DNA of 54,112 bases from Ottowia sp. (GCA_017437605.1 JAFRYL010000145.1:1-54112); one strand, 5' to 3'. Counted from the stretch's first letter, positions 1,246 through 52,486 are shown. Translations and numbers: made by a program. Notes: generated by a model not told the origin, from the sequence alone.

Positions 1246-1305
1246 ATACTCCACGCATTCACATGTCATTGCCGGTGAATGTTACGGGCGAAAAAAACAA
1301 TACCC
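1246..1305. repeat. GCCGGC-core element E1 (long/short, degenerate right core)
   Basis: ATACTC-N19-GCCGGT-GAATGTT-ACGGGC-N10-ATACCC. Confidence 0.65.
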
Positions 1306-1330
1306 TAGATGATGAGACAGGAATGTCGCC

Positions 1331-2413
1331 ATGACGGATGAAACACCGCCTCTGCTTGCCGCCGGTGGCTACGGGCAGTGGCTCGCGGCGCTCAAAACGC
1401 GCTTTCGCCAAGTGCAGCTCAAAGCTGCAGTGGCGGTCAACACCGAACTCCTGCAGTTTTATTGGGAACTGGGCGCCGACATCGTCCAGCGTCAGGACGG
1501 GCAGGCGTGGGGCAGCGGCTTTCTGGAAAAGCTCAGTCACGACTTGCGGGCAGAGTTTCCGCATGTGCAAGGCTTCTCCAGGCGCAACCTTGAGCGTATC
1601 CGCCAGTGGCACCAGTATTGGGCGGGCGACGCAGCAATTGCGACACAGCTTGTGTCGCAATTGACTGCCATCCCTTGGGGGCACAACCTTGCCATCGTCA
1701 GCAAATGCCGCAGCCACGCCGAAGCCCTGTATTACGTGCAGCAAACGCAGATGCACGGCTGGAGCCGCGCCGTGCTCACGCACCAGATAGAAAGCGGCCT
1801 CTGGCAGCGCGAAGGGCAAGCCATCAGCAACTTTGAGCGCACGCTGCCCGCGCCGCAGTCCGACCTGGCGGCGCAAGTGCTCAAAGACCCCTACGTGTTT
1901 GACTTTCTCAGTCTCGCCCCCGAACACACCGAGCGCGAACTGGAACGCGCCCTGCTGGACCACATCACCCAATTCCTGCTGGAACTCGGCACCGGCTTTG
2001 CCTACATCGGGCGGCAAGTGCCGCTGCAAGTGGGCGAGCGCGAATTCTTCCCTGACCTGCTCTTCTACCACGCGCGGCTGCACTGCTACGTCGTCGTTGA
2101 ATTGAAAACCGTGGACTTTGAGCCGGAATTTGCCGGCAAACTCAACTTCTACCTCAAAGCCGTGGACGAACAAATGCGCGGCGCAGGCGACGCCCCAACC
2201 ATCGGCCTGCTGCTGTGCAAAAGCAAAGACCGGCTGGTCGCGGAATATGCCCTTTCAGACATGCACAAACCGCTGGGCGTTGCCAGCTACCAGCTTGCGC
2301 ACGAGTTGCCGCAAGACCTGCGCGACAAACTGCCGAGTATTGAGGCGCTAGAAGAGCAACTGCGCGAAGCGGCTTGTGACGACCAAGCGCCGCCGCGCGG
2401 CAGAAAAGCGTAA
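1331..2413 (+). CDS. YhcG/DUF1016 family PD-(D/E)XK nuclease-domain protein
   Basis: AVNTELLQFYWELG, GFSRRNL, KDPYVFDFL, FLLELGTGFAYIGRQ, DLLFYH..LHCYVVVELK, GKLNFYL. Confidence 0.9.
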   Translation: MTDETPPLLAAGGYGQWLAALKTRFRQVQLKAAVAVNTELLQFYWELGADIVQRQDGQAWGSGFLEKLSHDLRAEFPHVQGFSRRNLERIRQWHQYWAGDAAIATQLVSQLTAIPWGHNLAIVSKCRSHAEALYYVQQTQMHGWSRAVLTHQIESGLWQREGQAISNFERTLPAPQSDLAAQVLKDPYVFDFLSLAPEHTERELERALLDHITQFLLELGTGFAYIGRQVPLQVGEREFFPDLLFYHARLHCYVVVELKTVDFEPEFAGKLNFYLKAVDEQMRGAGDAPTIGLLLCKSKDRLVAEYALSDMHKPLGVASYQLAHELPQDLRDKLPSIEALEEQLREAACDDQAPPRGRKA

Positions 2414-2419
2414 TTCCTG

Positions 2420-2478
2420 CTGTATATATTCGTTGCCGGCTTATGAAGCCGGCGACGAAGCATGTTTATGTGTAGTAT
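2420..2478. repeat. GCCGGC-core element E2 (short/long)
   Basis: CTGTAT-N9-GCCGGC-TTATGAA-GCCGGC-N19-TAGTAT. Confidence 0.9.
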
Positions 2479-2483
2479 GCAGC

Positions 2484-3152
2484 TCACACTACCCGCTGCA
2501 CGGCTTCTTCAAGCGTGCGGCGGGTTTTGGGGCGGGGTTCGTTCAGGCGGTAGCCGAAGCACACCATGACGGCGAGTTTGTAGTGCTCGGGGTTGTAGGG
2601 CACTTCGCGGGCGAGGTGGGCGTTCATGCTTTCCAGATCAAAGCCTTCAATGGGCGTGGAGTCAATGCCGAGCCAGGCGGCGGTGCTGAGCATGTTGGCC
2701 ATGGCGATGTAGCTCTGTTTGCAGGCCCAGTCGTAGAAGGCGCGCGAGTGGCCGACGAGGGCAAAGTCGCTCTTGGCGAAGTGCTCAAAGTGTTGGCAGC
2801 GGCGTTCCAGTGCCTCGCCCTCCACGCGCTGGCGCTCGCGGAAGATGCGTTGCGGCAGGCCGCTGTCGGGCGAAAGCAGGGGTTCGAGCTGCGCGATGAA
2901 GGCGACGACGTGGCTGCATTCGGTGGCCTTGGCGCCGGCGCCCCAAGCCTGCTCTGCGATGCGCTGGCGCAGCGCGGGGCGCTCAATGACGAGCAGGCGC
3001 CACGGCTCCAGCCCGAAGGAGCTTGGGGCGAGCACGGCGCTTTGCAGCAGGGTTTGAAAGTCGTCCTCGCTGATGCGGCGTGCGGGGTCGTAGACCTTGC
3101 AGGCGTGGCGGAAGTTGGCAGCAGCGATGATGTCGGCGGCGGTCACAGGCAT
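2484..3152 (-). CDS. NAD(P)H-dependent nitroreductase family protein
   Basis: RHACKVYD, LAPSSFGLEPW, GIDSTPIEGF; start taken at MPVTAA. Confidence 0.9.
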   Translation of the reverse strand: MPVTAADIIAAANFRHACKVYDPARRISEDDFQTLLQSAVLAPSSFGLEPWRLLVIERPALRQRIAEQAWGAGAKATECSHVVAFIAQLEPLLSPDSGLPQRIFRERQRVEGEALERRCQHFEHFAKSDFALVGHSRAFYDWACKQSYIAMANMLSTAAWLGIDSTPIEGFDLESMNAHLAREVPYNPEHYKLAVMVCFGYRLNEPRPKTRRTLEEAVQRVV

Positions 3153-3282
3153 GGCGGTTTTCCTTTCTGTTGTGGCGGGTTGGGTGCTCCTTGTTTGGGA
3201 GCATGCGGGTGACGGGTGCAATCGTGGACAATACGCCGCTTTGCGTTTTCACCCTTTTTGAAACACGAAGGATAAGGACATC

Positions 3283-3504: not shown

Positions 3505-3563
3505 GGGTATAAAGGCGTCGCCGGCAAGATAAGCCGGAAAGAAAAGCAATTACAGACGGGTAT
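3505..3563. repeat. GCCGGC-core element E3 (short/long)
   Basis: GGGTAT-N9-GCCGGC-AAGATAA-GCCGGA-N19-GGGTAT. Confidence 0.85.
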
Positions 3564-3652: not shown

Positions 3653-3661
3653 GCGTAGGCA

Positions 3662-6120: not shown

Positions 6121-6189
6121 ATACCCATGCAATAAACATTGCATTGCCGGCAACATAAGCCGGTGCTTAAATGCAGTGGCAATGGGTAT
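6121..6189. repeat. GCCGGC-core element E4 (long/long)
   Basis: ATACCC-N19-GCCGGC-AACATAA-GCCGGT-N19-GGGTAT. Confidence 0.9.
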
Positions 6190-6202: not shown

Positions 6203-6271
6203 ATACTGTCAAACAAGATATTTCATCGCCGGCACAAGTTGCCGGCGACGCTGTGAAACATCAAAGGGTAT
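6203..6271. repeat. GCCGGC-core element E5 (long/long), overlaps LysR stop
   Basis: ATACTG-N19-GCCGGC-ACAAGTT-GCCGGC-N19-GGGTAT. Confidence 0.9.
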
Positions 6272-10107: not shown

Positions 10108-10176
10108 ATACTGGCAGAAAAAACGTTTTGTCGCCGGCTTCATAAGCCGGTGATGCAGTGCATTATTGTTGGGTAT
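10108..10176. repeat. GCCGGC-core element E6 (long/long)
   Basis: ATACTG-N19-GCCGGC-TTCATAA-GCCGGT-N19-GGGTAT. Confidence 0.9.
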
Positions 10177-10190: not shown

Positions 10191-10259
10191 ATACCAAGGC
10201 ACGTGAACACAGCTTGCCGGCAAGATAAGCCGGCAAGCTGGTGTTTGCGCTGGCAGTAT
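10191..10259. repeat. GCCGGC-core element E7 (long/long)
   Basis: ATACCA-N19-GCCGGC-AAGATAA-GCCGGC-N19-CAGTAT. Confidence 0.9.
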
Positions 10260-10273: not shown

Positions 10274-11581
10274 TCACTTCGCACCGGCGGCGCGCAGCAT
10301 GTTGACGATGTTGGTGTGCCCCTTGGCCTGGGCGATGTCCTGGGCGGTGGAGCCGGCGAGCTTGCCTTTGCTGATGGTGGTGTTCAGGTTGGCGCCACGC
10401 TCAATGAGCAGGCGGACGGTGTCGGCGTGCCCCTTGCCGGCGGCAATCATCAGGGCGGTGACGCCGTTTTCTTCCTGCATGTTGATGCTGGCGCCTTTGT
10501 CCAGCAGCAGGCGGGCGGTGGTGGTGTGGCCGTTCTGCGCGGCGAGCATGAGGGGCGTCCAGCGGCGCTTTTCGGTGGCGTTGACGCTGGCGCCGCGCTC
10601 AATGAGCAGGCGGGCGGTGTCGGTGTGCCCCTTGTTGGCGGCGAACATGAGCGGCATCCAGCCTTTGACGTCGGCGGAGGTGAGGCTTGCGCCTTTGTCC
10701 AGCAGCAGGCGCACGGTGTCGGTGTGGCCGTTGGTGGCGGCGAAGATGAGCGGCGTCCAGCCGTCTTCGTCAGCGGCGTTGACTTTGGCACCTTTGCCAA
10801 GGAGCAGGCGGGAGGTGTCGGCGTGGCCGTTGCCGGCGGCAATGGTCAGGGCGGTGGCGCCGGTTTTGGTGGCGGCGCCGACTTTGGCGCCTTTTTCAAG
10901 GAGCAGGCGCACGGTGTCGGTGTAGCCGTTTTGTGCGGCAATCATCAGCGGCGTCCAGCGGTCTTCTTCGGTGACGCCGACTTTGGCGCCTTTGCTGATG
11001 AGCAGGCGGGCGATGTCGGTGTGGCCTTTCTGCGCGGCGAACATGAGGGGCGTCCAGCCGCGTTTGTCGGTGGCGCTCACGGAGGCGCCCTTGTCAAGGA
11101 GCTGGCGGGTGGCGTCGGCGTGACCGTGGCCGGCAGCAATCATCAGCGGGGTGATGTTGTTGACGGTGACGGCGTCGACTTTGGCGCCTTGGTCAAGGAG
11201 CAGGCGCACGGTGTCGGCGCTGCCGTCCTGCGCGGCGAGCATGAGGGCGGTCCAGCCCTTGTTTTCGGTGGCGTGGAGGTTCGCGCCCCGGTCAAGCAGG
11301 AAGCGCGCGGCGTCGGTGTTCCCCTTGGCGGCGGCGAACATGAGGGCGTTCCAGCCGTCGCTGTCGGCGGCGTTGATGGCGACGCCGCCTTCCAGCAGGC
11401 AGCGCAGGTTGTTGGTGTCGCCAGCGCGCGCGGAGTAGAGCAGCGGGAGGGGGGCTTTTTCGTCCGTTGTGGTGTTGCAGGGCGTGCCGGAGGCGTCACG
11501 CACGGCGCCGGTGGTGCCGCAGCCGGCAAGCAGGGCAGTGAGCAGCGCGGCGGCAAGAGTGGAGAGGGTGGTTTTTTTCAT
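10274..11581 (-). CDS. Ankyrin-repeat lipoprotein ANK1 (~12 repeats including caps)
   Basis: MKK..LLAGC lipobox; 33-aa GxTPLMxAAxxGHTDTVRLLLDKGA repeats; ends LRAAGAK. Confidence 0.92.
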   Translation of the reverse strand: MKKTTLSTLAAALLTALLAGCGTTGAVRDASGTPCNTTTDEKAPLPLLYSARAGDTNNLRCLLEGGVAINAADSDGWNALMFAAAKGNTDAARFLLDRGANLHATENKGWTALMLAAQDGSADTVRLLLDQGAKVDAVTVNNITPLMIAAGHGHADATRQLLDKGASVSATDKRGWTPLMFAAQKGHTDIARLLISKGAKVGVTEEDRWTPLMIAAQNGYTDTVRLLLEKGAKVGAATKTGATALTIAAGNGHADTSRLLLGKGAKVNAADEDGWTPLIFAATNGHTDTVRLLLDKGASLTSADVKGWMPLMFAANKGHTDTARLLIERGASVNATEKRRWTPLMLAAQNGHTTTARLLLDKGASINMQEENGVTALMIAAGKGHADTVRLLIERGANLNTTISKGKLAGSTAQDIAQAKGHTNIVNMLRAAGAK

Positions 11582-11606
11582 GCTTGTTTCCTTGGTTGAT
11601 AGAGTT

Positions 11607-11665
11607 GGGTATTGTGTGGTCGCCGGCTTGATAAGCCGGTAACCGTGCATTGATTGGCAAAGTAT
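11607..11665. repeat. GCCGGC-core element E8 (short/long)
   Basis: GGGTAT-N9-GCCGGC-TTGATAA-GCCGGT-N19-AAGTAT. Confidence 0.9.
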
Positions 11666-11679
11666 TGCCAAAAACGCCT

Positions 11680-12450
11680 TCACTTTGCGCCAGCGGCGCG
11701 CAGCATGTTGGCGACGGCGGTGTGACCGTTGGCGGTGGCAATCATCAACGCGGTGAGGCCCTGTTTGTTGGCGGCATCCACTTGGGCGCCCCGGTCAAGG
11801 AGCAGGCGGGCGGTGTCGCTGCGGCCTTCTTGCGCGGCGAGCATCAGCGCAGTCCAGCGCTCATCTGCGGAGGCGGCGTTGGGGTTGGCTCCTTTGTCCA
11901 GCAGCAGGCGGGCGGTGTCGGTGTGACCGCCGCCAGCGGCCATCATCAGCGCGGTGGCGCCATGCTGTTTGTTGTCGGCATTGGGGTTGGCGCCCCGCTC
12001 AAGGAGCAGGCGCGCAGTGCCGAACTGTCCCCTGGTGGCTGCGACCATGAGGGCTGAACCGCCTTTTTCGGTGCTGGCGTGAATGTTGGCGCCTCGGTCA
12101 AGGAGCAGGCGCGCGGTGTCGGTGTGGCCGTTGCCTGCGGCGGACATGAGGGCTGTCCATCCGTCTTTTTCAACGGCGTTGGGGTTGGCGCCTTTGTCAA
12201 GGAGTAGGCGCACGGTGTCGGTCTGCCCTTCGCTGGCCGCGAACATGAGGGCGGTCCAGCCGTCGTCATCCGGGGCGTCAATGGGAGAGCCGCTGTCCAG
12301 CAGGCAGCGCACGTTCCCCGCGTTGCCTTCGCGTGCGGAGTAGAGCAGCGGGGTGACGGCGCTTTCATCTGTCGTGGTGTTGCACGGCGCAGCGTGCGCG
12401 GCGGCGCAGACAAAGAGCGCGAGGGCGGCGGTGAAAAGCTGTTTTTTCAT
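11680..12450 (-). CDS. Secreted ankyrin-repeat protein ANK2 (~7 repeats)
   Basis: Signal peptide ending AHA; ankyrin repeats; ends LRAAGAK. Confidence 0.92.
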   Translation of the reverse strand: MKKQLFTAALALFVCAAAHAAPCNTTTDESAVTPLLYSAREGNAGNVRCLLDSGSPIDAPDDDGWTALMFAASEGQTDTVRLLLDKGANPNAVEKDGWTALMSAAGNGHTDTARLLLDRGANIHASTEKGGSALMVAATRGQFGTARLLLERGANPNADNKQHGATALMMAAGGGHTDTARLLLDKGANPNAASADERWTALMLAAQEGRSDTARLLLDRGAQVDAANKQGLTALMIATANGHTAVANMLRAAGAK

Positions 12451-12461: not shown

Positions 12462-12520
12462 CAGTACTGCAGTATCACCGGCAAGTTACGCCGGCGATGC
12501 AGTGTTAATGTTCAGGGTAT
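12462..12520. repeat. GCCGGC-core element E9 (short/long)
   Basis: CAGTAC-N9-ACCGGC-AAGTTAC-GCCGGC-N19-GGGTAT. Confidence 0.8.
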
Positions 12521-16484: not shown

Positions 16485-16543
16485 GGGTATCTATGTGTCG
16501 CCGGCACAAGTCGCCGGCAATGATGTGTTTGAACAATGAGTAT
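16485..16543. repeat. GCCGGC-core element E10 (short/long)
   Basis: GGGTAT-N9-GCCGGC-ACAAGTC-GCCGGC-N19-GAGTAT; fills almost the whole truA-trpF gap. Confidence 0.9.
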
Positions 16544-19494: not shown

Positions 19495-19552
19495 GGTATA
19501 ACATCGTTGCCGGCTTGATAAGCCGGCAATAACATGTAACTACTTATAGTAT
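19494..19552. repeat. GCCGGC-core element E11 (short/long)
   Basis: GGGTAT-N9-GCCGGC-TTGATAA-GCCGGC-N19-TAGTAT; starts on the last base of the uvrB TAG. Confidence 0.9.
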
Positions 19553-23989: not shown

Positions 23990-24048
23990 CAGTATGTGTT
24001 GCTTGCCGGCATAAGAAGCCGGCAAGCAAGTGTGGATTGGAGGCGTAT
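23990..24048. repeat. GCCGGC-core element E12 (short/long)
   Basis: CAGTAT-N9-GCCGGC-ATAAGAA-GCCGGC-N19-GCGTAT. Confidence 0.9.
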
Positions 24049-24063: not shown

Positions 24064-24711
24064 TCACTTCGCGCCAGCGGCGCGCAGCATTTGGGCGGTG
24101 GCGGTGTGCCTTTGCCACGTGGCGAGCGTCAGCGCGGTGGCGCCTTTCTTGTCGGTGGCGTTGATGTCGGCGCCTTTTTCAATGAGCATGCGCGCGGTGT
24201 CGGTGTTCCCCATGAGTGCAGCGTACATGAGGGGCGTCCAGCCCGTTTTTGTTGTGGCGTGAATGTTTGCGCCTCGTTCAATGAGAAAGCGGGCGGTGGC
24301 AGTTTGTCCCGTGCTTGCGGCGTTCATCAGGGCAGTGTTGCCGTCTTTGTTTGCGGCGTTGACATTGGCGCCCCTGTCCAGCAACAGGCGGGCGGTGTCG
24401 GTGTGACCGCCTTGCACGGTAATCATCAGCGCGGTGCCGCCGCCAACGGTGGTGGCGTTGGGTTTTGCGCCCCTGTCCAGCAGCAGGTGCACGGTGTCGG
24501 TGTGCCCATCCTTCGCGGCGTGCATGAGGGGCGTCCAGCCGTATTCGTCGGAGACTTTGGGGCTGGCGCCTTGGTCAAGGAGGGCGCGGACGGTGGCGGT
24601 CTGCCCTTCGCCTGCGGCGCGCAGGAGTGCCTGCTTGCTTGCGGTGTCGGTGGTGGCGCAGGCGCTGAGCAGGGCAGCAAGCACAAGGGCGGGGAACAGC
24701 AGTTTTTTCAT
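24064..24711 (-). CDS. Ankyrin-repeat lipoprotein ANK3 (~6 repeats)
   Basis: MKKLL..LLSAC lipobox; ankyrin repeats; ends LRAAGAK. Confidence 0.92.
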   Translation of the reverse strand: MKKLLFPALVLAALLSACATTDTASKQALLRAAGEGQTATVRALLDQGASPKVSDEYGWTPLMHAAKDGHTDTVHLLLDRGAKPNATTVGGGTALMITVQGGHTDTARLLLDRGANVNAANKDGNTALMNAASTGQTATARFLIERGANIHATTKTGWTPLMYAALMGNTDTARMLIEKGADINATDKKGATALTLATWQRHTATAQMLRAAGAK

Positions 24712-24723
24712 GCCGTTTTGCAT

Positions 24724-24782
24724 GGGTATTGTGTGGCTGCCGGCTTGATAAGCCGGCGACCGAATGACGTTGAATGCGGTAT
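24724..24782. repeat. GCCGGC-core element E13 (short/long)
   Basis: GGGTAT-N9-GCCGGC-TTGATAA-GCCGGC-N19-CGGTAT. Confidence 0.9.
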
Positions 24783-24795
24783 GCGAAGAAAACCT

Positions 24796-25530
24796 TTATT
24801 TCTTCGCGCGCTTCGCGCCCTTCGCGCCGGCGGCCTTGAGCATCTTGACGATGGTGGTGTGCCCGTTGGCCTGGGCGATGTCCAGCGCGGTGCGGCCAGC
24901 GGCTTTGCCTTTGGTGACGACGGCGTTGACCTTGGCGCCTTTGTCAAGCAGCAGGCGCACGGTGTCAGCGTGCCCCTGCAATGCAGCGATGGTCAGCGCG
25001 GTGGCGCCCTTGTCGTTGGCGGCGTTGACGTTTGCGCCGTTTTCAAGCAGCAGGCGGGCGGTGTCGGTGTGGCCGCTGGCGGCGGCGGCCATCAGCGCGG
25101 TGCTGCCGTCCTTGTAGGCGGCGCCAACCTGCGCGCCTTTTTCAAGGAGCAGGCGCACGGTGTCAGTGCGGCCATTGCCCGCCGCGCCCATGAGCGCGGT
25201 GAAGCCGTCGCCCTTGTCGGCGCCCACCTGCGCGCCCTTGTCAAGGAGGTTCTGGACGATGTCGGTGTGGCCGCGACCAGCCGCGAGCATGAGTGCGGTG
25301 AGGCCTTCGCCATCAGCAGCGTTGGCATCGGCGCCGGCGTCCAGCAGGCAGCGCACGTTGGCGGCGTCGCCTTCCTTGGCGTCGTGCAGCAGCGCGCTGT
25401 TGGCATCGCTGCCTTCGGCGATGTTGCACTGCGCGGCGGCGCTGGTGGCGCTGTCCTGCACGGTGCCGTTGGTGACGCAGCCGGCAAGCAGCGCCGAGAG
25501 CAGCAGGGCGGGGAGCAGGTGGTGTTTCAT
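24796..25530 (-). CDS. Ankyrin-repeat lipoprotein ANK4 (~6 repeats)
   Basis: LLAGC lipobox; ankyrin repeats; ends LKAAGAKGAKRAKK. Confidence 0.92.
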   Translation of the reverse strand: MKHHLLPALLLSALLAGCVTNGTVQDSATSAAAQCNIAEGSDANSALLHDAKEGDAANVRCLLDAGADANAADGEGLTALMLAAGRGHTDIVQNLLDKGAQVGADKGDGFTALMGAAGNGRTDTVRLLLEKGAQVGAAYKDGSTALMAAAASGHTDTARLLLENGANVNAANDKGATALTIAALQGHADTVRLLLDKGAKVNAVVTKGKAAGRTALDIAQANGHTTIVKMLKAAGAKGAKRAKK

Positions 25531-25554
25531 GCTGGTTTCCTAGGTTGATTGAAG

Positions 25555-25613
25555 GGGTATTGTGTGGTCGCCGGCTTATGAAGCCGGCGATTGTGTGCAG
25601 ATTGGCATTGTAT
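25555..25613. repeat. GCCGGC-core element E14 (short/long)
   Basis: GGGTAT-N9-GCCGGC-TTATGAA-GCCGGC-N19-TTGTAT. Confidence 0.9.
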
Positions 25614-25625
25614 TGCCAAATCGTC

Positions 25626-26537: not shown

Positions 26538-26549
26538 GGTGTTTTCCTT

Positions 26550-26608
26550 GGGTATGTAATGCTTGCCGGCTTGATAAGCCGACGACAAAGTGATGATTGA
26601 TGTGGTAT
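26550..26608. repeat. GCCGGC-core element E15 (short/long)
   Basis: GGGTAT-N9-GCCGGC-TTGATAA-GCCGAC-N19-TGGTAT. Confidence 0.88.
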
Positions 26609-26621
26609 TGCTAAAAACGCC

Positions 26622-27101
26622 TCATTTTTTTGCGCCAGCGGCGCGCAGGATTTTCACGATTTCGGTGTGTCCTTCGGCTTGGGCGAAGTCCAGCGCGGTA
26701 TGCCCTTGCGTGGTGGCTGCGTTGAGATCGGCGCCGCTGGCAATGAGCAGGCGGACGGTATCGCTCTGTCCCCACATTGCCGCGAACATCAGCGCGGTTT
26801 CGCCAGTCTTGCGGGAGGCGTTGACCTGAGCGCCCTTTTCAATGAGCAGGCGGGTGGTGTCGGAGGGGCATAAGGTGAGCGCAGCGCTCATAAGCGCGGT
26901 GTCGCCGTTCTCGTCGGCAGCGTTGACGTCCGCGCCCTTCTCAATGAGCAGGCGAATGGTGTTGTTGTCGCACATGAGCACTGCCTGCATCAGCGCGGAG
27001 GTGCCAGACGCGCCGCCGCTGCTGCCCTGCGCGGTGCCGGTGGTGGCGCAGGCGGTGAGTAGCGCCGAGAGCAGCAGGACGGGGAGCAGATGTTTATTCA
27101 T
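26622..27101 (-). CDS. Ankyrin-repeat lipoprotein ANK6 (~4 repeats)
   Basis: LLTAC lipobox; ankyrin repeats; ends LRAAGAKK. Confidence 0.9.
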   Translation of the reverse strand: MNKHLLPVLLLSALLTACATTGTAQGSSGGASGTSALMQAVLMCDNNTIRLLIEKGADVNAADENGDTALMSAALTLCPSDTTRLLIEKGAQVNASRKTGETALMFAAMWGQSDTVRLLIASGADLNAATTQGHTALDFAQAEGHTEIVKILRAAGAKK

Positions 27102-27112
27102 AGAATTTGATG

Positions 27113-27171
27113 AGGTATTGATTGCTTGCCGGCTTGATAAGCCGGCGATGAAATGTATTATCAATGGGTAT
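27113..27171. repeat. GCCGGC-core element E16 (short/long)
   Basis: AGGTAT-N9-GCCGGC-TTGATAA-GCCGGC-N19-GGGTAT. Confidence 0.9.
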
Positions 27172-28313: not shown

Positions 28314-28610
28314 ATGGGGAAGCTGGTGCGTTTGTGGAAACTGGCCGGACGGCAGGCGCGGCTGGCGTGGGCGGTGCTGCGCGACGCGCGCACGCCGTGG
28401 AGCGCCAAGGCTGCCACAGTGTTTGCGCTGCTCTACGTGCTGGTGCCTGCCGATGTGGTCACAGACTTTATGCCCGTGCTCGGCTGGCTGGACGACGGGC
28501 TGGTGGTCTACATCCTGCTGCAACTCGCGTTCAAACTGCTGCCGCCGGAACTCTACGAGAGCGTGCGCGTGAAGGTGGAGCAGCGCGGCAAGGCGGCGCC
28601 AAGCAATTGA
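28314..28610 (+). CDS. YkvA/DUF1232 family membrane protein
   Basis: ALLYVLVPADVVTDFMPVLGWLDD motif. Confidence 0.8.
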   Translation: MGKLVRLWKLAGRQARLAWAVLRDARTPWSAKAATVFALLYVLVPADVVTDFMPVLGWLDDGLVVYILLQLAFKLLPPELYESVRVKVEQRGKAAPSN

Positions 28611-28678
28611 TACTCCTTGACATATGCAGCAATCGCCGGCTACATAAGCCGGCGATTGTGTTTTATATGCTTGGGTAT
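28610..28678. repeat. GCCGGC-core element E17 (long/long)
   Basis: ATACTC-N19-GCCGGC-TACATAA-GCCGGC-N19-GGGTAT; starts on the last base of a TGA stop. Confidence 0.9.
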
Positions 28679-31004: not shown

Positions 31005-31064
31005 ATACTTCATGCATAAACATCGGATTGCCGGCTCAACTTGCCGGCGGCAATATCAATACCC
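31005..31064. repeat. GCCGGC-core element E18 (long/short)
   Basis: ATACTT-N19-GCCGGC-TCAACTT-GCCGGC-N10-ATACCC. Confidence 0.85.
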
Positions 31065-31860: not shown

Positions 31861-31929
31861 ATACTGCCTGCATAAAAATCAACTTTCCCGTATAACAAGC
31901 CGGCAAGTAACGCTTGTTTTCAGGGGTAT
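31861..31929. repeat. GCCGGC-core element E19 (long/long, decayed left core)
   Basis: ATACTG-N19-TCCCGT-ATAACAA-GCCGGC-N19-GGGTAT. Confidence 0.7.
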
Positions 31930-31943: not shown

Positions 31944-32002
31944 ATACTCTGCAAAAACATATTCCATCACCGGCAACTTGTGCCGGTGATGCTGTGATAC
32001 CC
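31944..32002. repeat. GCCGGC-core element E20 (long/short)
   Basis: ATACTC-N19-ACCGGC-AACTTGT-GCCGGT-N9-ATACCC. Confidence 0.85.
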
Positions 32003-33634: not shown

Positions 33635-33660
33635 GTGCGCGGACAGTTGACATGACCAAC

Positions 33661-33689
33661 GGGGCCGCCGCGCGCGGCCCCTTTTTTTT
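33661..33689 (+). terminator. Intrinsic terminator
   Basis: GGGGCCGC-loop-GCGGCCCC followed by T8. Confidence 0.75.
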
Positions 33690-33702
33690 GATGGAGAAAA
33701 AC

Positions 33703-34167
33703 ATGGGCAAATTCGCAGGCAAAAAACTGCTGCTTTTGGGCGAACGCAGCGGCGTATCCGGCGAAGCGATGGAAAAAATCTTCGCTGACAGCGGCGCAGA
33801 AATCGTCTACGTGGACACAAGTTGCCTCGGCTGCAGCCTGATAGAGGCGCTCGACCGCCGCAGCCAGCAGCGCGTGCGCGCCGCAGCCGAGCAGTGGGGC
33901 GCAGAAAACCTCGTCGCCATCATCGGCTGCGCCGACACAGCGGGCGCCAAGGTCTACGCCGAAACACTCACCAGCGGCGACCCCTACGAAAGCGGATCGC
34001 TCGCAGGCATCGCCCTGCACCTTCCCGTCTTCCACGCGCTCGACGACGAAATCAAAGCCGACATCGCCCCCGAACTCTGGAAAGAACACATCAGCATGAT
34101 GGAACGCATCCTCGATGCCCCCGCGCTCGCCTCTACCGTGCGCGCTGTCAGGGAAGCCAAAGCGTAG
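33703..34167 (+). CDS. Glycine/sarcosine/betaine reductase protein A (GrdA)-like, Cys form
   Basis: GKKLLLLGERSGVSG..TSCLGC..GAENLVAIIG..AETLTSGDP..G.LAGI.L.L.V.H..SMME parallels clostridial GrdA (recognised from memory). Confidence 0.75.
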   Translation: MGKFAGKKLLLLGERSGVSGEAMEKIFADSGAEIVYVDTSCLGCSLIEALDRRSQQRVRAAAEQWGAENLVAIIGCADTAGAKVYAETLTSGDPYESGSLAGIALHLPVFHALDDEIKADIAPELWKEHISMMERILDAPALASTVRAVREAKA

Positions 34168-34177: not shown

Positions 34178-34236
34178 CAGTATTACTGCATCGCCGGTAA
34201 CATAAGCCGGTAACCAAGTGCATATTCAGTGTGTAT
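34178..34236. repeat. GCCGGC-core element E21 (short/long)
   Basis: CAGTAT-N9-GCCGGT-AACATAA-GCCGGT-N19-GTGTAT. Confidence 0.85.
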
Positions 34237-38633: not shown

Positions 38634-38692
38634 CGGTATCAATCCATCGCCGGCAACATAAGCCGGCGACCGTAGATATATTGATTGAGTAT
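38634..38692. repeat. GCCGGC-core element E22 (short/long)
   Basis: CGGTAT-N9-GCCGGC-AACATAA-GCCGGC-N19-GAGTAT. Confidence 0.9.
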
Positions 38693-38755: not shown

Positions 38756-39709
38756 TCAATAGCCCTGATTCCGGTCCACGACGTTGGTGAGCGCCTCGCC
38801 CGCCAGAAAGCGCGCGAGGTTGTCCGCTGCAATCTGCACGGCGCGCTCCATCGTGCCGGGAAGCAGGAAGCGGCTTGCCACATGCGGGGTGATGAAGACG
38901 CGCTCCATGCCCCAGAGCGCGTCGTCCGCGGGCAGCGGCTCCGGCTCGGTGACATCAAGCGCAACGGCGCGCAGGTGGCCGTCTGCGAGCACCTTTTTCA
39001 ATGCAGCGGGGTCAATGGCGCTGCCACGCCCGACGTTGATGAGGCAGGCATCCGCCTTCATCAGGCGCAGGCGGCGCTCGTCCATGAGGCGGGTGGTAGC
39101 CGCGCCGCCCGGCAGCACCATCGTTACCACATCGGCGCTGGGCAGCACTTCGTCCAGATGCTCGATGGTCAACACCTCGTCCACACACGCCGGTTTGTCC
39201 AGCGCGCGCCGGCGCACACCGATGACGTGGGCGCCAAGCGCCTTCATCTTGGCGGCGTAGGTGCTGCCAGCGGCGCCCAGTCCCAGAACGGCAATGCGTG
39301 CGCCCTCGACGGAGCGCATCGCGCCGCTCACTGCCCATGTGCGCGCCTGCTGTTGCTGCGCGTAGCTTTTCAGCCCGCGCAGCAGCGCGAAGGTGAGCGC
39401 CACGGCATGCTCGGCAACGCTCAGGGCGTGCGCGGAAGCGGCATTGGTCAGCGTGGCTTGGGGGCGCAGGCAGTCAGCCGCCGCGAACGGATCGGCGCCA
39501 GCGGTAAAGAGCTGCAGCCATGCGAGCTGCCCCGCCTTTTTGACCTGTTCGGCAGAAGGCAGGCCGAGCAAGGCATCCGCCTCGTGCAAATCGGCATCTG
39601 TGGCGGCGTCCGCAGTGCGAAAAACCAGCGAGGCGCGCTCGCCAGCCGCCGCGAGCAACGCCTGTTTGTGCGCGTCGTCAAGCGGCGCGATGACCAGAAT
39701 CTTTTTCAT
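38756..39709 (-). CDS. D-2-hydroxyacid dehydrogenase
   Basis: VLGLGAAG, INVGRG, ALDVTEPEPLP, ITPHVA. Confidence 0.9.
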   Translation of the reverse strand: MKKILVIAPLDDAHKQALLAAAGERASLVFRTADAATDADLHEADALLGLPSAEQVKKAGQLAWLQLFTAGADPFAAADCLRPQATLTNAASAHALSVAEHAVALTFALLRGLKSYAQQQQARTWAVSGAMRSVEGARIAVLGLGAAGSTYAAKMKALGAHVIGVRRRALDKPACVDEVLTIEHLDEVLPSADVVTMVLPGGAATTRLMDERRLRLMKADACLINVGRGSAIDPAALKKVLADGHLRAVALDVTEPEPLPADDALWGMERVFITPHVASRFLLPGTMERAVQIAADNLARFLAGEALTNVVDRNQGY

Positions 39710-40788
39710 GACGTTTCCTTGTGTTGAAGCCCTGTTAAATGGAGTTTGGTTTGTGCTCTTTCCCCCATCGTCAGGCTGCGCTGTGTCGCGAATATTTCCT
39801 TCTGCCGTTCTATTTCCTTGCGCAATTCCTCCTCGGACGGCAAATACGTCAGGTACTTCGCCGCGAAAAGCTGCTTGCTGCCGTGCAGAACGGAATAGCG
39901 GGCGATGTCTTTGCCCGTTTCGGAACAGAGCACAAGCCCGACAGTGGGGTTGTCGCCCTCGGTGCGCTTTATGTCATCAAACATGCGCACATACATGTCC
40001 ATTTGCCCGACGTCTTTGTGCGTCAGTTTCCCGGTTTTGAGGTCAACAAGGAAGAAGCATTTGAGAATGTAGTTGTAGAAGACGAGGTCAATAAAGTAAT
40101 CCTCGCCGTCGGCCACGATGTGCTGCTGGCGCGCGACGAACGAGAAGCCGCGCCCCAGTTCCATGATGAACGACGTGATGTGCGACAGAATCGCCGATTC
40201 AAGCTCGCTTTCGGTAAAGCTGGAATTGCTCGGCAGCCCGAGAAACTCGGCAACGACAGGGCTTTTGACCAGCTCGGCGTTCGCGGGCGGATTCTCTGCC
40301 GTTTTTTCTAGCATCTCGGCAATGACGGCCTCCTTTTTAGGCGAGGCGAGAAGCCGGTGGTAGTACTGCGAGCCGACGTTTCTCGCCAGTGTCCGCGCGC
40401 TCCAGTTTTCCCGCGACGCCTCGCGGAGGTACCAATACCGCGCGTCGGCGTTGACGACAGGCAAAACCTGCCTGATGTGCGTCCAGGTCAGATTTGGCAC
40501 TCGCGAGTGCCAAATCTCAAAATCCGGCAACTGCGCGTAGAATTGCCGGTAGTCGCGCAGCCGCCTGGCCGAATAGCGGTCTCCATAGACAGGGCGCAGG
40601 GTTTTCGCCAATTCATCAATCAAATGGGCACCATATGTCGCGCGCTCTTCGCCACCCTGTTCTTCTTCAACAATCCGCCGGCCAATCCGCCAATAGGTCA
40701 GCGCGGCAATGATGTTTGCTGCGGAATAGGCTTGGAGAACGCCCTTGTCGATGATGTTCCTGACATCGGAGGCCAATGAGGATTTCAT
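39706..40788 (-). CDS. Second YhcG/DUF1016 family PD-(D/E)XK protein
   Basis: YWRIGRRIVEEEQ, LTWTH, WSARTL, ELGRGFSFVARQ, IDLVFYN..DLK, GQMDMYV. Confidence 0.88.
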   Translation of the reverse strand: MKSSLASDVRNIIDKGVLQAYSAANIIAALTYWRIGRRIVEEEQGGEERATYGAHLIDELAKTLRPVYGDRYSARRLRDYRQFYAQLPDFEIWHSRVPNLTWTHIRQVLPVVNADARYWYLREASRENWSARTLARNVGSQYYHRLLASPKKEAVIAEMLEKTAENPPANAELVKSPVVAEFLGLPSNSSFTESELESAILSHITSFIMELGRGFSFVARQQHIVADGEDYFIDLVFYNYILKCFFLVDLKTGKLTHKDVGQMDMYVRMFDDIKRTEGDNPTVGLVLCSETGKDIARYSVLHGSKQLFAAKYLTYLPSEEELRKEIERQKEIFATQRSLTMGERAQTKLHLTGLQHKETS

Positions 40789-42099: not shown

Positions 42100-42158
42100 A
42101 GGTATATATCGCTTGCCGGCACAACAAGCCGGCGAACATAGATATGTTGCATGAGTAT
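42100..42158. repeat. GCCGGC-core element E23 (short/long)
   Basis: AGGTAT-N9-GCCGGC-ACAACAA-GCCGGC-N19-GAGTAT. Confidence 0.9.
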
Positions 42159-44174: not shown

Positions 44175-44233
44175 ATACTGGTTGGAAATATGTGTGGTTG
44201 CCGGCTTATGTTGCCGGCGATGAATGGATACCA
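44175..44233. repeat. GCCGGC-core element E24 (long/short), overlaps ygfZ 3' end
   Basis: ATACTG-N19-GCCGGC-TTATGTT-GCCGGC-N9-ATACCA. Confidence 0.9.
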
Positions 44234-48342: not shown

Positions 48343-49143
48343 ATGTTCACCGACTCGCACTGCCACCTCGTCATGCCTGAACTGGCGGAGCAACTGCCGC
48401 AGGTGCTGGAAGCCATGCAGCAGGCGCGCGTGACACGCGCACTCACCGTCTGCACCACGATGGAGGAGTTCCCCGCCGTGTGCGCGCAGATTGAAGCGCA
48501 CCCGCAACTTTGGGGCAGTGTGGGCGTGCACCCGGAAAACGAACCCGGCGCCTGCGCCGAGGCCGATGAAGCCGCCCTCGTGCGCGCGGCACAGCACCCG
48601 CGCGTCGTTGCCATCGGCGAAACCGGGCTGGACTACTACCAGATGGACGAGCGCAAGGGCGGGCGCAGCATCGCTGACCTGGAATGGCAGCGCGAGCGTT
48701 TCCGCTGCCACATCCGCGCCGCGCACGCCGCGTGTCTGCCGCTCATCATTCACATGCGCTCGGCGGCGGATGACACCCTCGCCATCCTGCGCGAGGAGGG
48801 CGCAGAGCGCGCCGGCGGCGTGTTCCACTGCTTTACGGAAACGAAGGACGTTGCCCGCGCCGCGCTGGACATGGGCTTTTACATCTCCATCTCCGGCATC
48901 GTCACCTTCAAGAATGCGCGCGAAGTGCACGAAGCCGCCGCCTACGTGCCCGAAGACCGCCTGCTCATAGAAACCGACGCGCCCTACCTCGCCCCCGTGC
49001 CGCACCGTGGGCGCCTGAACCAGCCCGCCTATGTCGCGCACACTGCCGCGTGCATCGCCGAGCTGCGCGGCGTGGATGTGGAACGCATCGCCCGCACGAC
49101 GTGGGACAATTTCAACTCCCTCTTCACCAAGGTGAACGCATGA
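48343..49143 (+). CDS. TatD family DNase
   Basis: DSHCH, GVHP, IGETGLDY, HCFT, ETDAPYL. Confidence 0.93.
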   Translation: MFTDSHCHLVMPELAEQLPQVLEAMQQARVTRALTVCTTMEEFPAVCAQIEAHPQLWGSVGVHPENEPGACAEADEAALVRAAQHPRVVAIGETGLDYYQMDERKGGRSIADLEWQRERFRCHIRAAHAACLPLIIHMRSAADDTLAILREEGAERAGGVFHCFTETKDVARAALDMGFYISISGIVTFKNAREVHEAAAYVPEDRLLIETDAPYLAPVPHRGRLNQPAYVAHTAACIAELRGVDVERIARTTWDNFNSLFTKVNA

Positions 49144-49775
49144 AACACTCCATCCCTACATACCTCCTTGCCGCCACCCTCGCGTTTTCCAGCGCAGCCT
49201 GGGCGGGCGTCGTTGACGACCTTTTCAGCGCCGTGCGCCGCGACAGCGACATGGCCGTCACCGCCGCGCTCAAGAACGTCGTCAGCCCCAACGTCCAGGA
49301 CGCCAAAGGCAACACCGGCCTGCACGTCGCCCTGCTTGAAGAAATGCCCAACGCTGCCCGCGTGCTGCTGGAGCAGCCGCAGATTGACGTGAATGCGGTC
49401 AACAAGGCCGGCGAGACACCCCTGATGATGGCCGCCCTCAGAAACAATGTGGACGTCGCCCGCACCCTGATAGAGCGCGGCGCCGCCATCAACAAGAGCG
49501 GCTGGACCCCGCTGCACTACGCCGTCACCGGTGGCAACACGGACATCATGAACATGCTGCTGGACAAAGGCGCGCAGATTGACGCCCGCTCGCCAAACGG
49601 CACCACGCCGCTAATGATGGCCGCGCGCTACGGCAGCACCAAGGCCGTGGAACTGCTGCTGCAAAAAGGCGCCGACCCCAAACTCACCAACGAACAAAAC
49701 CTCACCGCGCTGGACTTCGCCCGCCTCGGCCAGCGCCCCGACGCCATCAAGATTCTGGAAAAGCTGGCGCAATAA
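49140..49775 (+). CDS. Exported ankyrin-repeat protein (operonic, distinct from ANK1-7)
   Basis: ATGA overlap with tatD; signal peptide; GETPLMMAA, GWTPLHYA, GTTPLMMAA. Confidence 0.88.
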   Translation: MKHSIPTYLLAATLAFSSAAWAGVVDDLFSAVRRDSDMAVTAALKNVVSPNVQDAKGNTGLHVALLEEMPNAARVLLEQPQIDVNAVNKAGETPLMMAALRNNVDVARTLIERGAAINKSGWTPLHYAVTGGNTDIMNMLLDKGAQIDARSPNGTTPLMMAARYGSTKAVELLLQKGADPKLTNEQNLTALDFARLGQRPDAIKILEKLAQ

Positions 49776-49829: not shown

Positions 49830-49888
49830 ATACTCATTGAAATAATTCTGCGTCGCCGGCTTGTTTTGCCGGCGACTGAATGATACCC
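49830..49888. repeat. GCCGGC-core element E25 (long/short)
   Basis: ATACTC-N19-GCCGGC-TTGTTTT-GCCGGC-N9-ATACCC. Confidence 0.9.
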
Positions 49889-50576: not shown

Positions 50577-50583
50577 AGCCTTG

Positions 50584-50642
50584 ATACCCAATTGATTTTG
50601 CCACTATCGCCGGCTTATGTTGCCGGCGATGGAGTGATACCC
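50584..50642. repeat. GCCGGC-core element E26 (long/short)
   Basis: ATACCC-N19-GCCGGC-TTATGTT-GCCGGC-N9-ATACCC. Confidence 0.9.
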
Positions 50643-50651
50643 TCTGACTTC

Positions 50652-51815
50652 TTACGGAAGAAAGAGCTGCTGCACGTCGCTGAGGAAGTCAAAGCCGCGT
50701 GCGGTGGGCGTCCAGTGGCCGTGCGCTTCGTGCAGCCAGCCCTTGCGCGCGGCTTCCTGTAGCGTGGGCTGCACGGCGGAGGGGGGCAGGCCGGTGCGGG
50801 CGCAGAAGTCCTGCATGTCAAAGCCGTTTTTGAGGCGCAGCGCGCCGAGCATGTATTCAAACGGCAGCTCGCGCGGCGTGACTTGCCGCTCGTTTTCCAC
50901 GGCTTTGCCTGAAAAGGCAGCCTGCATGTATTGTTCTGGCTGGCGTGCGCGCTCGTGCCGGATAATGCGCTGCGTGAAACTGATTTTGGCGTGCGCCCCG
51001 GCGCCGATGCCGAGATAATCGCCAAACTGCCAGTAATTGAGGTTGTGCGTGCATTGACAAGCTGCCCGCGCCCAGGCGGAAACTTCATAACGCTGCAGTC
51101 CAGCGGCGGCGCAGGCGGCGTCGCTGGTGTCCATCATGGCGCTGGCTTCATCGTCGTCCGGCAGTGGCGGCGGTTTTTTGGCAAAGGGCGTGCCTTCTTC
51201 CAGCGTGAGTTGATACGTGGACAAATGCGGTGGCGCAAAGGACAGGGCGATATGCAAATCTTCCTGCCATTCCTGCACGCTTTGCCCGGGCAGGGCATAC
51301 ATCAAATCCAGATTGAATTGTTCAAAATGGCGCGCGGCTTCCTCTGCGGCGGCGCGCGCCTGCGCGCCGTCGTGCACACGGCCTATGGCGGCAAGCAGGT
51401 GGTCGTTGAAGCTCTGCACGCCGATGGAAAGGCGCGTGACGCCAGCGGCGCGGTAGGCGGCAAAACGCTCGCGCTCAAAGGTGCCCGGATTGGCTTCCAG
51501 CGTGATTTCGCAGCCCGGCGCAAAGGGCAGCAGGGCGCGCGCGCGGCGCAAAAAATCTGCGACTAATTCGGGTGCAAACAAGCTGGGTGTGCCGCCACCC
51601 AGAAACACGCTGATGATGCGCCGCCCCTGCACCAGCGGCAGGCAGGCTTCAATATCCGCCAGCAGCGCCTGCACATAGCGCGCGTGCAGGGCGGCGTTGT
51701 TTTCGCTCTGGCGCAGTGGATGTGAATTGAAATCGCAGTACGGGCATTTTTTCAGGCACCAGGGAAAATGCACGTAGAGCGCCAGCGGCGGCAGTTCAGG
51801 CAACTGCTGCATCAT
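50652..51815 (-). CDS. hemW: Radical SAM heme chaperone HemW
   Basis: LYVHFPWCLKKCPYCDFNSH, GGGTPS, HNLNYW..DYLGIGAGAH. Confidence 0.93.
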   Translation of the reverse strand: MMQQLPELPPLALYVHFPWCLKKCPYCDFNSHPLRQSENNAALHARYVQALLADIEACLPLVQGRRIISVFLGGGTPSLFAPELVADFLRRARALLPFAPGCEITLEANPGTFERERFAAYRAAGVTRLSIGVQSFNDHLLAAIGRVHDGAQARAAAEEAARHFEQFNLDLMYALPGQSVQEWQEDLHIALSFAPPHLSTYQLTLEEGTPFAKKPPPLPDDDEASAMMDTSDAACAAAGLQRYEVSAWARAACQCTHNLNYWQFGDYLGIGAGAHAKISFTQRIIRHERARQPEQYMQAAFSGKAVENERQVTPRELPFEYMLGALRLKNGFDMQDFCARTGLPPSAVQPTLQEAARKGWLHEAHGHWTPTARGFDFLSDVQQLFLP

Positions 51816-52411
51816 GCAAACCAGCGTTCGCGCATGAGCGCAAGCATGGCCTGCACCGCGCGCCCTCGATGGCTGTGCGCGTTTTTTACCTCCGGCGGCA
51901 CTTGCGCGAAGGTGCAGCCAAATTCGGGCAGGAAAAACACAGGGTCAAAACCAAAGCCGCCGTCGCCTGCTTTTTCGTGCGTGATGAGGCCGCTGACGCG
52001 CCCGGTGGCGACGAGCGGTTCGGGGTCGTCTGCGTGGCGCAGGGCGACCAGCGTGCTCACCATCGCCGCGCGGCGGTTCTCAACGCTGCGCATGTTCTGC
52101 AGCAGGGCGAGCACGGAACCATCTTCGCCCGGGAAGCCGTGTTGCGCGCCGTAGTGCGCCGTGTCCACGCCGGGCAGCCCGCCGAAGGCGTCCACGCACA
52201 AGCCCGCATCGTCAGCAAGCGCCGGCAGGCCGCTGGAGCGCGCCGCGTGCCGCGCCTTGGCGAGCGCGTTTTCAAGGAAGGTGTGAAACGGCTCCTCGGC
52301 TTCCGCGATGCCAAGCGCGCCCTGGCTGACAAGCTCCACGCCAAGCGGCGCGAGCAGCGGGCGCAGTTCCGCGAGTTTTCCGGCGTTGTGGCTGGCGAGG
52401 ACAAGCTGCAT
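51812..52411 (-). CDS. rdgB: Non-canonical purine NTP pyrophosphatase
   Basis: LASHNAGKLAE, ENALAKA, GFGFDPVF, KNAHSHRGRA. Confidence 0.95.
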   Translation of the reverse strand: MQLVLASHNAGKLAELRPLLAPLGVELVSQGALGIAEAEEPFHTFLENALAKARHAARSSGLPALADDAGLCVDAFGGLPGVDTAHYGAQHGFPGEDGSVLALLQNMRSVENRRAAMVSTLVALRHADDPEPLVATGRVSGLITHEKAGDGGFGFDPVFFLPEFGCTFAQVPPEVKNAHSHRGRAVQAMLALMRERWFA

Positions 52412-52426
52412 GGTGTTTTTTTGGTG

Positions 52427-52486
52427 ATACTGTCAGACTATTGCGATTGCTTGCCGGCATAAGTTGCCGGTGGAAAATATATACCC
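52427..52486. repeat. GCCGGC-core element E27 (long/short)
   Basis: ATACTG-N20-GCCGGC-ATAAGTT-GCCGGT-N9-ATACCC. Confidence 0.85.

Follow-up and report, generated by a model that had tools for sequence, protein, structure and literature searches.

The window analysed here, a 54,112-nucleotide stretch of an Ottowia sp. assembly (GCA_017437605.1 JAFRYL010000145.1:1-54112), carries 27 copies of a short dispersed element between positions 1246 and 52484. Each copy has a 19-bp dyad core (6-7-6, typically GCCGGC-N7-GCCGGC) and one box per side, which is either ATAC at +9..+12 read outward from the core (short arm, S) or GTAT at +21..+24 (long arm, L). The forms are labelled LS for a short plus a long arm, LL for two long arms and SS for two short arms. 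The genome holding the window, G000, is a 2.04-Mb, 97%-complete assembly of 64% GC in 215 contigs, and its gene positions come from the 2009 genes that we called ourselves. Between its TrpA and Comamonadaceae proteins, identity is 60-66%. The sequencing runs that contain its DNA are, according to the run records, mostly animal-gut metagenomes. The element family is real, far beyond chance, and extends past the window.

Copies of the element in the window

With up to three core mismatches allowed, provided that both boxes were present, the search returned exactly the 27 fixed-geometry copies that an earlier sequence-only reading had reported. Degenerate cores included, 21 of them have a short and a long arm, six have two long arms and none has two short arms. 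GCCGGC-N7-GCCGGC itself occurs 16 times and RCCGGY-N7-RCCGGY 23 times, and every other spacing from 0 to 29 gives 0-2 matches. The same three of the 54 arms that had been described as deviating by +1 nt were found again, at cores 1271, 31030 and 52453; one arm at core 12477 has the correct length with a substituted box, GTAC, which had not been flagged. Five of the 27 copies run 1-37 nt into the end of a predicted gene; the others are intergenic, as had been claimed.

Read from left to right, with the left arm written first, the first copy (1246..1303, L-S+1, degenerate core 1271-1289) forms the left flank of a YhcG cassette. The YhcG (DUF1016) gene, on the plus strand at 1331..2413, stands between two elements whose S arms face it, the second being the S-L copy at 2422..2478 (core 2435-2453). 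The window has a further YhcG/DUF1016 PD-(D/E)XK gene at 39706-40776; the first is a strain-variable cassette. An S-L copy at 3507..3563 (core 3520-3538) is followed by two L-L copies whose cores are 82 bp apart, at 6121..6189 (core 6146-6164) and 6203..6271 (core 6228-6246), the latter overlapping the LysR stop. Another L-L pair, at 10108..10176 (core 10133-10151) and 10191..10259 (core 10216-10234), has an 83-bp interval between cores. Ankyrin arrays lie at 10274-12450, 24064-27101 and 49140-49775, built of one gene plus one element, with many signal-peptide-like gene starts. The S-L copy at 11609..11665 (core 11622-11640) is flanked by two ankyrin genes, and the next one, at 12464..12520 (core 12477-12495), is the S-L copy with the GTAC variant in its S arm. 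Further S-L copies occupy the trpF/truA gap (16487..16543, core 16500-16518) and the gap of the convergent uvrB and polA (19496..19552, core 19509-19527).

Five more S-L copies follow, at 23992..24048 (core 24005-24023), at 24726..24782 (core 24739-24757) and 25557..25613 (core 25570-25588), both in an ankyrin array, at 26552..26608 (core 26565-26583) and at 27115..27171 (core 27128-27146). The fourth of these is the left end of a 563-bp cassette on the minus strand (26560..27122) made up of an ankyrin gene and one element. To its right are an L-L copy at 28610..28678 (core 28635-28653), an L-S+1 copy at 31005..31062 (core 31030-31048), and an L-L copy with a degenerate core at 31861..31929 (core 31886-31904), 83 bp from the core of the L-S copy at 31944..32000 (core 31969-31987). 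The remaining copies are S-L at 34180..34236 (core 34193-34211), 38636..38692 (core 38649-38667) and 42102..42158 (core 42115-42133), L-S at 44175..44231 (core 44200-44218, overlapping a gene end), 49830..49886 (core 49855-49873) and 50584..50640 (core 50609-50627), and L+1-S at 52427..52484 (core 52453-52471).

The window was compared with contigs from four sequencing runs, X4, X5, X6 and X7, of three studies. Contig 22 of X7 is missing precisely the 563 bp that separate core 26565 from core 27128. The joint lies within 22 nt of identity spanning the core, and the loops of the two copies are identical. At core 28635, X4 is split into two contigs that each hold 28628-28656 and then continue into different sequence, and X5, X6 and X7 run through. 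Both X6 and X4 lack the YhcG gene, which is replaced by 100 and 139 other bases, respectively; the match resumes in X6 at 2435, the first core base of the second copy, and in X4 at 2474. The X4 match also stops at 10259, the last box base of that copy, and all four runs diverge from the window at 24033, inside an L arm. Three strain differences thus break in or at the core (the X7 loss, the X4 split and the X6 junction), as the sequence-only reading had proposed to look for, and two break at the box. The crossovers fall in 22-29 bp of identity, and ankyrin gene copy number differs among the strains.

Geometry, placement and phasing in the host genome

In G000 as a whole, 767 copies carry both boxes (708 LS, 57 LL and 2 SS), which amounts to one copy per 2.7 kb and ~2.1% of the genome. 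RCCGGY-N7-RCCGGY is found 599 times, compared with ≤27 at other spacings from 0 to 25. The full pattern is found 497 times, and both the reversed pattern and the pattern with arm lengths swapped give 0. The dominant form is GTAT-N9-core(19)-N21-GTAT, and GTAT-N49-GTAT occurs 703 times vs ~13 at typical spacings; the -1 spacing (N48, 11) is at background level and N50 gives 63. The boxes are perfect in 1141 of the 1186 arms of strict cores. The spacers diverge, with 662 copies differing on average at 21.7 of 37 spacer positions, and the copies are not sequence families. The claim of conserved spacing with free spacer sequence is therefore kept at the scale of the genome and, as described below, across families; a scan of the whole genome and its relatives, which the sequence-only reading had suggested, found the 9/21 spacing throughout G000. 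Free shuffling of the arms disagrees with the counts of the three forms.

The 7-nt loop is polar, its positions 9 and 11 avoiding complementarity (z -18), and loop polarity is near random relative to the arms (352 vs 303). The core halves covary at two pairs only (4/16, z 12; 1/19, z 5.8). Considering that flank pairing in G000 is near the permutation mean, i.e. as independence predicts, and that all pairing has z ≤2.4 in the more distant genome G041, hairpin pairing is not required. No target-site duplication outside the boxes was seen in any set examined, and the logos show neither a conserved guide tetranucleotide at the stem foot nor a conserved U run 3' of the stem. The two boxes resemble each other in a 3' extension, roughly ATACCCWTnnAWWW (profile r 0.67 in register and 0.52 at -1), found 142 times in elements vs 4 alone. 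From these sequences we infer that the S and L boxes may be two halves of one 16-bp pseudo-palindromic site, ATAC-N8-GTAT, and that each copy would comprise two such sites at a distance of 53 bp (five turns), with one perfect half required of each.

Predicted genes contain 21 of the 767 copies. Among gaps of at least 40 bp, copies are present in 161 of 201 between convergent genes, 302 of 688 between co-directional genes and 63 of 213 between divergent genes. The element has no polarity relative to transcription (185 vs 163), and its strand bias is weak, with the GTAT strand on the G-rich strand in 315 cases vs 238. There are 53 ankyrin paralogues in the genome, 34 of them single genes between two copies, and 22 of these 34 units have S at the 5' end and L at the 3' end. 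The same gene-plus-element arrangement is seen for a second family, 24 surface-protein-like genes.

Neighbouring cores 60-115 bp apart cluster at 72-74, 83-84, 94-97 and 105-107 bp. Of 115 such pairs, 107 lie within 1.5 bp of 73, 83.5, 95 or 106 bp, intervals that take up 23% of the range. Taken by themselves, the 41 non-LL pairs have an R of 0.63 at a period of 10.5 and 0.77 at 11.3, and the phasing fades past ~115 bp. Between the facing sites of adjacent copies the distance is then 20, 31, 42 or 53 bp, which corresponds to two to five helical turns. Because the boxes are almost never mutated while the spacers diverge, and because neighbours are phased, the data point to a protein that reads double-stranded DNA on one helical face. 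Phased spacing would be expected from a protein on one face of duplex DNA, not from a single-strand hairpin or an RNA role.

Occurrence in other genomes

Within the genus, the strict pattern gives 520 matches in G000, 121 in G071, one in G025 and 0 in the other 46 genomes. Among 400 genomes of the family it gives eight in G108 and ≤2 in the others. When the geometry was searched without the core, G071 had 432 matches vs 14 in the control and G108 had 369 vs 20, G108 being the sole genome of the 400 clearly over control. In G008, also of Comamonadaceae, 102 copies have the core GCGCYY-N7-RRGCGC (0 in the control; three each in G021 and G035), and a stricter pattern finds 11 copies in G013. Three members of one family (f6) stand out among 380 genomes of the order, with 16 copies in G041, 12 in G608 and nine in G650 (controls 0); G056, from another family, has six vs one in the control. 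The adenylate kinase of G041 is 96-98% identical to named Chitinibacter proteins, and G041, G608 and G650 are Chitinibacter-like. The SS form is above control in 0 of 400 genomes sampled from Pseudomonadota, by a pattern that does not test the LS form. Named records carrying copies include rumen metagenome-assembled genomes (MAGs) and a Xylophilus MAG.

For G041, a complete one-contig genome, the element figures given here and below are from 600 kb (16.5%). SS is the main form there, with GTAT-N37-ATAC found 156 times vs a median of 6; an outer GTAT stands at +21 in 34 arms and at +22 in 26, ATAC-N61-GTAT is near background (11 vs a median of 5), and the core is nearly erased. The G041 copies share little beyond eight bases. 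In G608 and G650 the core reads GCCATT-N7-AATGGC. The ATAC-N8-GTAT site is intact in G041 and G608; G041 mostly retains both inner halves, and G000 retains an inner half and an outer half, which hardly ever share an arm. The conserved feature is the box geometry. GCCGGC, which the sequence-only reading took to define the core, is a lineage-specific variant; other lineages have other cores with the box geometry unchanged. Copies in G041 occupy 20 of 45 convergent, 34 of 161 co-directional and 2 of 57 divergent gaps. Strand bias is absent from the first 2 Mb of G008 (19+/20-), and a replichore bias seen in 23 G008 copies was gone once all 102 were counted.

For comparison with G071, 134 G071-like copies were taken from fetched loci covering part of that genome, and 110 comparisons, some copies being counted from both sides, were usable. 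At the matching place G000 has a same-orientation copy in 45, an opposite one in 17, an LL or SS copy in four and none in 44. Same-orientation copies differ at a mean of 17.6 positions vs 23.1 for random pairs, and 17 of the 45 rows have ≤14 mismatches (random 1st percentile 15). These flank comparisons indicate that many copies were inherited with intact boxes and that others were gained or lost. The genes bordering a gap are also adjacent in G071 at 19 of 115 element gaps vs 41 of 78 element-free gaps (Fisher p 2e-7, which is overstated in that gaps may be counted from both sides).

The contigs that carry copies in G470, G471 and G473 resemble G000 at 85-99%; they are probably misbinned, and these copies were not counted as spread. 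The MAG contigs L026, L047, L029 and L028, labelled Rhodocyclaceae or Clostridia, carry copies, are 85-99% like G000 and are probably binning errors. Among viral matches, three lie within a structural gene and another 120 equal control rates; two metagenome matches have GC-rich spacers and look like chance. A second repeat type is present in G021 and G008, with a GCGCYY-N7-RRGCGC core and arms N9-ATTT and N5-GCTAT-N7-RTAGC (≤337 core matches). It is absent from G000, and no description of it was found in the literature searched. Its GCTAT-N7-GATAT arm abuts an inverted repeat 3' of the TIRYT gene, a Y1-type gene considered below, at many Comamonadaceae loci. At L094:10059-10401 of G071, element-like geometry lies in frame within a gene as four tandem 108-bp repeats that encode a 36-aa repeat.

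A putative architectural binding site and its rivals

Our best reading is that the element is a putative protein-binding site, undescribed in the literature searched and similar to repetitive extragenic palindromic (REP) sequences and bacterial interspersed mosaic elements (BIMEs). That it is an architectural site, with recombination as a by-product, is a tentative view to which we would give somewhat less than an even chance. A two-fold symmetric protein would bind both sites of a copy on one helical face and would bend or wrap the 37 bp between them. Acting at gene 3' ends, above all between convergent genes, it could contribute to chromosome architecture or supercoil handling, and selection at each copy would keep the boxes and their spacing. 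Homologous recombination in the 22-29 bp common to any two copies would, as a side effect, produce the cassette gains and losses and the synteny breaks. The repeated core is likely a crossover point for gene gain, loss or reordering, and the route is probably homologous recombination, since the identity at the strain crossovers is a stretch that such recombination could use. We infer the binding of protein to duplex DNA, the purpose of this binding and the recombination route from the geometry and the breakpoints.

By analogy, the element would work like dispersed sites of the REP/BIME type, with a core resembling a recombination hotspot such as dRS3. REP/BIME elements are bound by host proteins such as IHF and gyrase, and they are thought to serve chromosome architecture or supercoil handling. 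Like REP/BIME and REPIN with their RAYT enzymes, the element has hundreds of short palindromic intergenic copies, lineage-specific expansion and dimers at set distances. In the accessible part of PMC6006769, a REP is defined by a GT[AG]G tag at the stem foot. The element, however, has neither a GT[AG]G nor a CGTC foot tag; it has a GTAT box 9 nt from the hexamer and a second box at 21, it is defined by spacing with pairing dispensable, and no RAYT was found in G000 or G041. Neisseria dRS3/NTS repeats with the Ssn nuclease, as far as the available text of PMC11893778 goes, also have a short inverted core, a variable loop and hundreds of copies beside variable genes. In contrast to them, the element has a 7-nt loop, boxes at 9/21, no CGTC tag and no short GIY-YIG gene in its carriers (PF01541: none in G000, G071 or G108). 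The VeiPR1 repeat of Verminephrobacter eiseniae, described in the accessible portion of PMC3975124 as an abundant palindromic repeat making up ~2.3% of a host-associated Comamonadaceae genome whose synteny has been lost, compares in abundance with the element at 2.1%.

By the tests made, the element belongs to none of REP/RAYT, Ssn/NTS and the Rfam families. Rfam gave no match to it in the window at E up to 1, nor in seven loci of G041, G608 and G650 at the gathering score. A literature search, with most subscription papers and the supplementary repeat tables (PMC6006769, PMC3733652, PMC12306157) outside its scope, returned no description of the geometry. The searches thus yielded no catalogued REP, MITE (miniature inverted-repeat transposable element) or Rfam match, in agreement with the earlier view that this is not a described family. 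Repeat finders depend on sequence similarity between copies and cannot see a family that only its spacing defines; they would overlook the G041 copies. The element is present, with different cores, in two bacterial families, and it marks where gene order and content change. It offers a test of whether REP-like repeats persist through a host-kept protein-binding function or as parasites, and this test is a clean one in that culturable carriers allow the boxes and the spacing to be mutated.

Three other repeats stand near these comparisons. G000 also has an ordinary GTAG-type REP, GTAGGGGC, with 149 matches; 33 of 352 looser matches start 0-3 nt after GTAT. A CCCTCTCCC/CCCTCACCC repeat (177 and 122 matches) is intergenic and interleaved with the element, like the GTAG-type REP, and no RAYT for either was found in G000. 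In G021 (L161 / L173:4800-5100) a short GIY-YIG (Ssn-like) gene lies between inverted CGTC repeats that are not this element.

Several results weigh against the architectural reading. No cognate enzyme or binding protein was found. The patchy spread (high copy number in 1 of 400 other genomes of the family, 3 of 380 genomes in the order, all in one other family, and 0 of 400 in the phylum) is easier to reconcile with a mobile factor than with a conserved host protein. Of the 156 copies in G041, 77 lie inside crude open reading frame (ORF) calls (controls 21/27). The covariation of two core pairs may reflect a hairpin or conversion between halves, and the binding-site model leaves the origin of new copies, such as those at the 44 of 110 G071 flanks without a G000 copy, unexplained. 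As for core crossover, the X4 breakpoints 2474 and 10259 are at the box, not the core, the departure of four runs at 24033 counts against a core-only rule, and paralogue mosaics show no sharp breakpoint peak.

A protein of the CsoR/RcnR/FrmR family (PF02583), encoded at C146:8867-9112 of G000, is a predicted binder, though a weak candidate that we consider rather unlikely. In the available part of PMC5146963, the FrmR of Escherichia coli recognises tandem inverted repeats of ATAC/GTAT that enclose G/C tracts of 9 bp, and RcnR binds tandem sites on one face, with wrapping suggested. PF02583 proteins are also present in G008 and G041, and G041 has 42 ATAC-N8-GTAT and 33 ATAC-N9-GTAT sites. The G000 protein, like other Ottowia-named homologues, lacks a cysteine kept by some relatives, at what we read as the probable sensory position. 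Operators of this family, however, are one or two promoter sites, whereas the element occurs hundreds of times, preferentially at gene 3' ends, mostly as half-sites and avoiding divergent gaps; G000 has half-sites only, with the full ATAC-N8-GTAT site nearly absent (two copies genome-wide). The subfamily is widespread (168 matches, with close relatives across Comamonadaceae), and by ORF reading the G008 and G041 homologues adjoin a persulfide-dioxygenase-like gene and a copper-transport-like operon. Considering this wide distribution and these ordinary regulatory contexts, the protein is only a lead.

A more ambitious form of the binding hypothesis is doubtful. It proposes a new chromosome-wide system of Burkholderiales in which a horizontally spread protein would recognise ATAC/GTAT site pairs five turns apart, assemble phased arrays at hundreds of gene ends and itself drive core exchange. 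The chromosome would then be an array of dispersed cassettes in which ankyrin and surface-protein genes are amplified and shuffled. Proteins shared between G000 and the 600 kb of G041 plus 188 kb of G608/G650 are housekeeping genes only.

It is unlikely, in our estimate, that a dedicated site-specific recombinase cuts the 7-bp asymmetric loop, with the boxes as accessory sites and the genes between direct copies as cassettes; were it true that such an enzyme acts on the element, this would be a new recombination system. Tyrosine-recombinase and attC cassette sites have inverted half-sites around an asymmetric centre, with one gene per repeat. The element resembles them (dif/pdif, attC) in its inverted half-sites around a 7-bp asymmetric centre, which are weak in G041, and in the one gene per repeat of the ankyrin arrays. 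The 6-7-6 dyad with its polar loop (positions 9/11, z -18), the precise 563-bp loss between identical-loop copies, the core-centred X4 split, the enrichment of synteny breaks at elements and the 34 of 53 ankyrin paralogues that are single between copies, 22 with S 5' and L 3', would all suit such an enzyme. Free core exchange, however, predicts many LL and SS copies, and 57 and 2 are observed vs 708 LS; the G041 core is nearly erased while the boxes persist; and the crossovers lie within 22-29 bp of identity, with paralogous cargo genes also supplying homology. Unlike those sites the element is dispersed genome-wide; it has no dif or attC motif, and G000 has neither IntI nor a further recombinase. 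The tyrosine recombinases (PF00589) of G000 are XerC and XerD only, with ordinary sequences, and two resolvase-like proteins were seen by motif only. Motif scans (HUH, serine recombinase, IS110, IS630, nuclease) gave no candidate, IS110 by regular expression only, and a dif motif had no match, not even in the complete genome G021, which makes it uninformative. Of the multi-part site for a recombinase or binding protein proposed in the sequence-only reading, the putative protein-binding site stands, from geometry and phasing, and the dedicated recombinase is the less probable part.

Low odds attach to both an IS200/IS605-type and an IS630-type origin. In the former, quite improbable, the element would be a non-autonomous single-strand element of an HUH Y1 enzyme (RAYT/TIRYT or IS200/IS605), a 53-nt circle that excises and inserts after ATAC. 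In IS608, a guide tetranucleotide 5' of the hairpin foot pairs with the cleavage site. The accessible text of PMC3597680 places the IS608 cleavage sites 19 nt 5' and 10 nt 3' of the hairpins, and this long-5'/short-3' tetranucleotide spacing is near that of the element, 18-21/10-13 by stem foot. On the ATAC strand the linker to the same tetranucleotide is long on the 5' side of the hairpin and short on the 3' side (N21/N9), the SS form excepted. The core covariation and the two X4 breakpoints at the box would also fit, as would an arm of a related 6-7-6 repeat that abuts the TIRYT 3' end at many Comamonadaceae loci. Unlike IS608, the element has one dyad instead of two hairpins and no conserved guide sequence at the stem foot, and the SS form dominant in G041 has no long linker. 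No single-ATAC empty site was found at the predicted gap when 641 copies were compared with G000 and fetched relatives, among which true empty alleles are few. The weak strand bias (315 vs 238) opposes an ATAC-strand model, and G008 has none.

The Y1 transposase domain (PF01797) has 0 matches in G000, none in complete G041 and none in G608, and PF04986 has one sub-threshold match in G000, in a glycosyltransferase-like ORF. A TIRYT-type Y1 gene is present in 114 of 121 family genomes and 41 of 49 genus genomes, not in G000 or G071. Among TIRYT loci, 57 of 60 gave a protein. The GTAT geometry flanks TIRYT at one of these 57 loci, in G108, where GTAT-N37-ATAC lies on each side of the gene, and the GTAT-rich genomes are not one TIRYT clade, by a quick tree only. 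TIRYT as the cognate enzyme, an idea that the G108 locus raised, is weakened by the locus being the only flanked one, by its absence from G071 and the absence of Y1 from G041 and G608. At C196:1-630 of G000, an element and a GNAT-like gene come after tatC. In relatives tatC precedes the TIRYT gene and gltB, neither of which was found in the assembly.

Still less probable is an origin as remnants of IS630/Tc1-type MITEs, in which ATAC...GTAT would stem from an ATAT target with duplicated TA, followed by the terminal repeat's first base, and LL would be a 63-bp MITE. LL copies are shaped like two bipartite ends (ATAC-N21-hexamer), a TA terminus and a link to IS630 are described for RUP and other bacterial MITEs (available part of PMC2229807), and a TA duplication inside invariant boxes would be indistinguishable in the duplication test. 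Terminal inverted repeats, however, occur in LL only (57 of 767), ATAC-N61-GTAT is near background in G041, S boxes are wrongly oriented for terminal repeats, no duplication lies outside the boxes and the copies are not sequence families. By regular expression only, no IS630/Tc1 motif was found in six frames of G000 or in the fetched parts of G041, G608, G650 and G008. An RNA-level terminator or mRNA-stabilising hairpin at 3' ends is very improbable: the GC-rich 6-9 bp stem, its position close behind stop codons and the enrichment between convergent genes would fit, yet orientations are equally used relative to transcription, the stem is not followed by a conserved U run, phasing and exact box spacing have no RNA rationale, G041 has lost the pairing and no Rfam family matches. 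Other explanations together take a small share.

Two features outside the element family should be mentioned. GATC is almost absent from G000 (175 vs 4635 expected, ratio 0.04), and GGCC, GTAC and ACCGGT are also avoided, a pattern that suggests restriction systems. In the window, a gene with a glycine reductase selenoprotein A (GRDA) domain at 33652-34167 adjoins an aldehyde dehydrogenase gene, in a betaproteobacterium, and was probably acquired from gut anaerobes.

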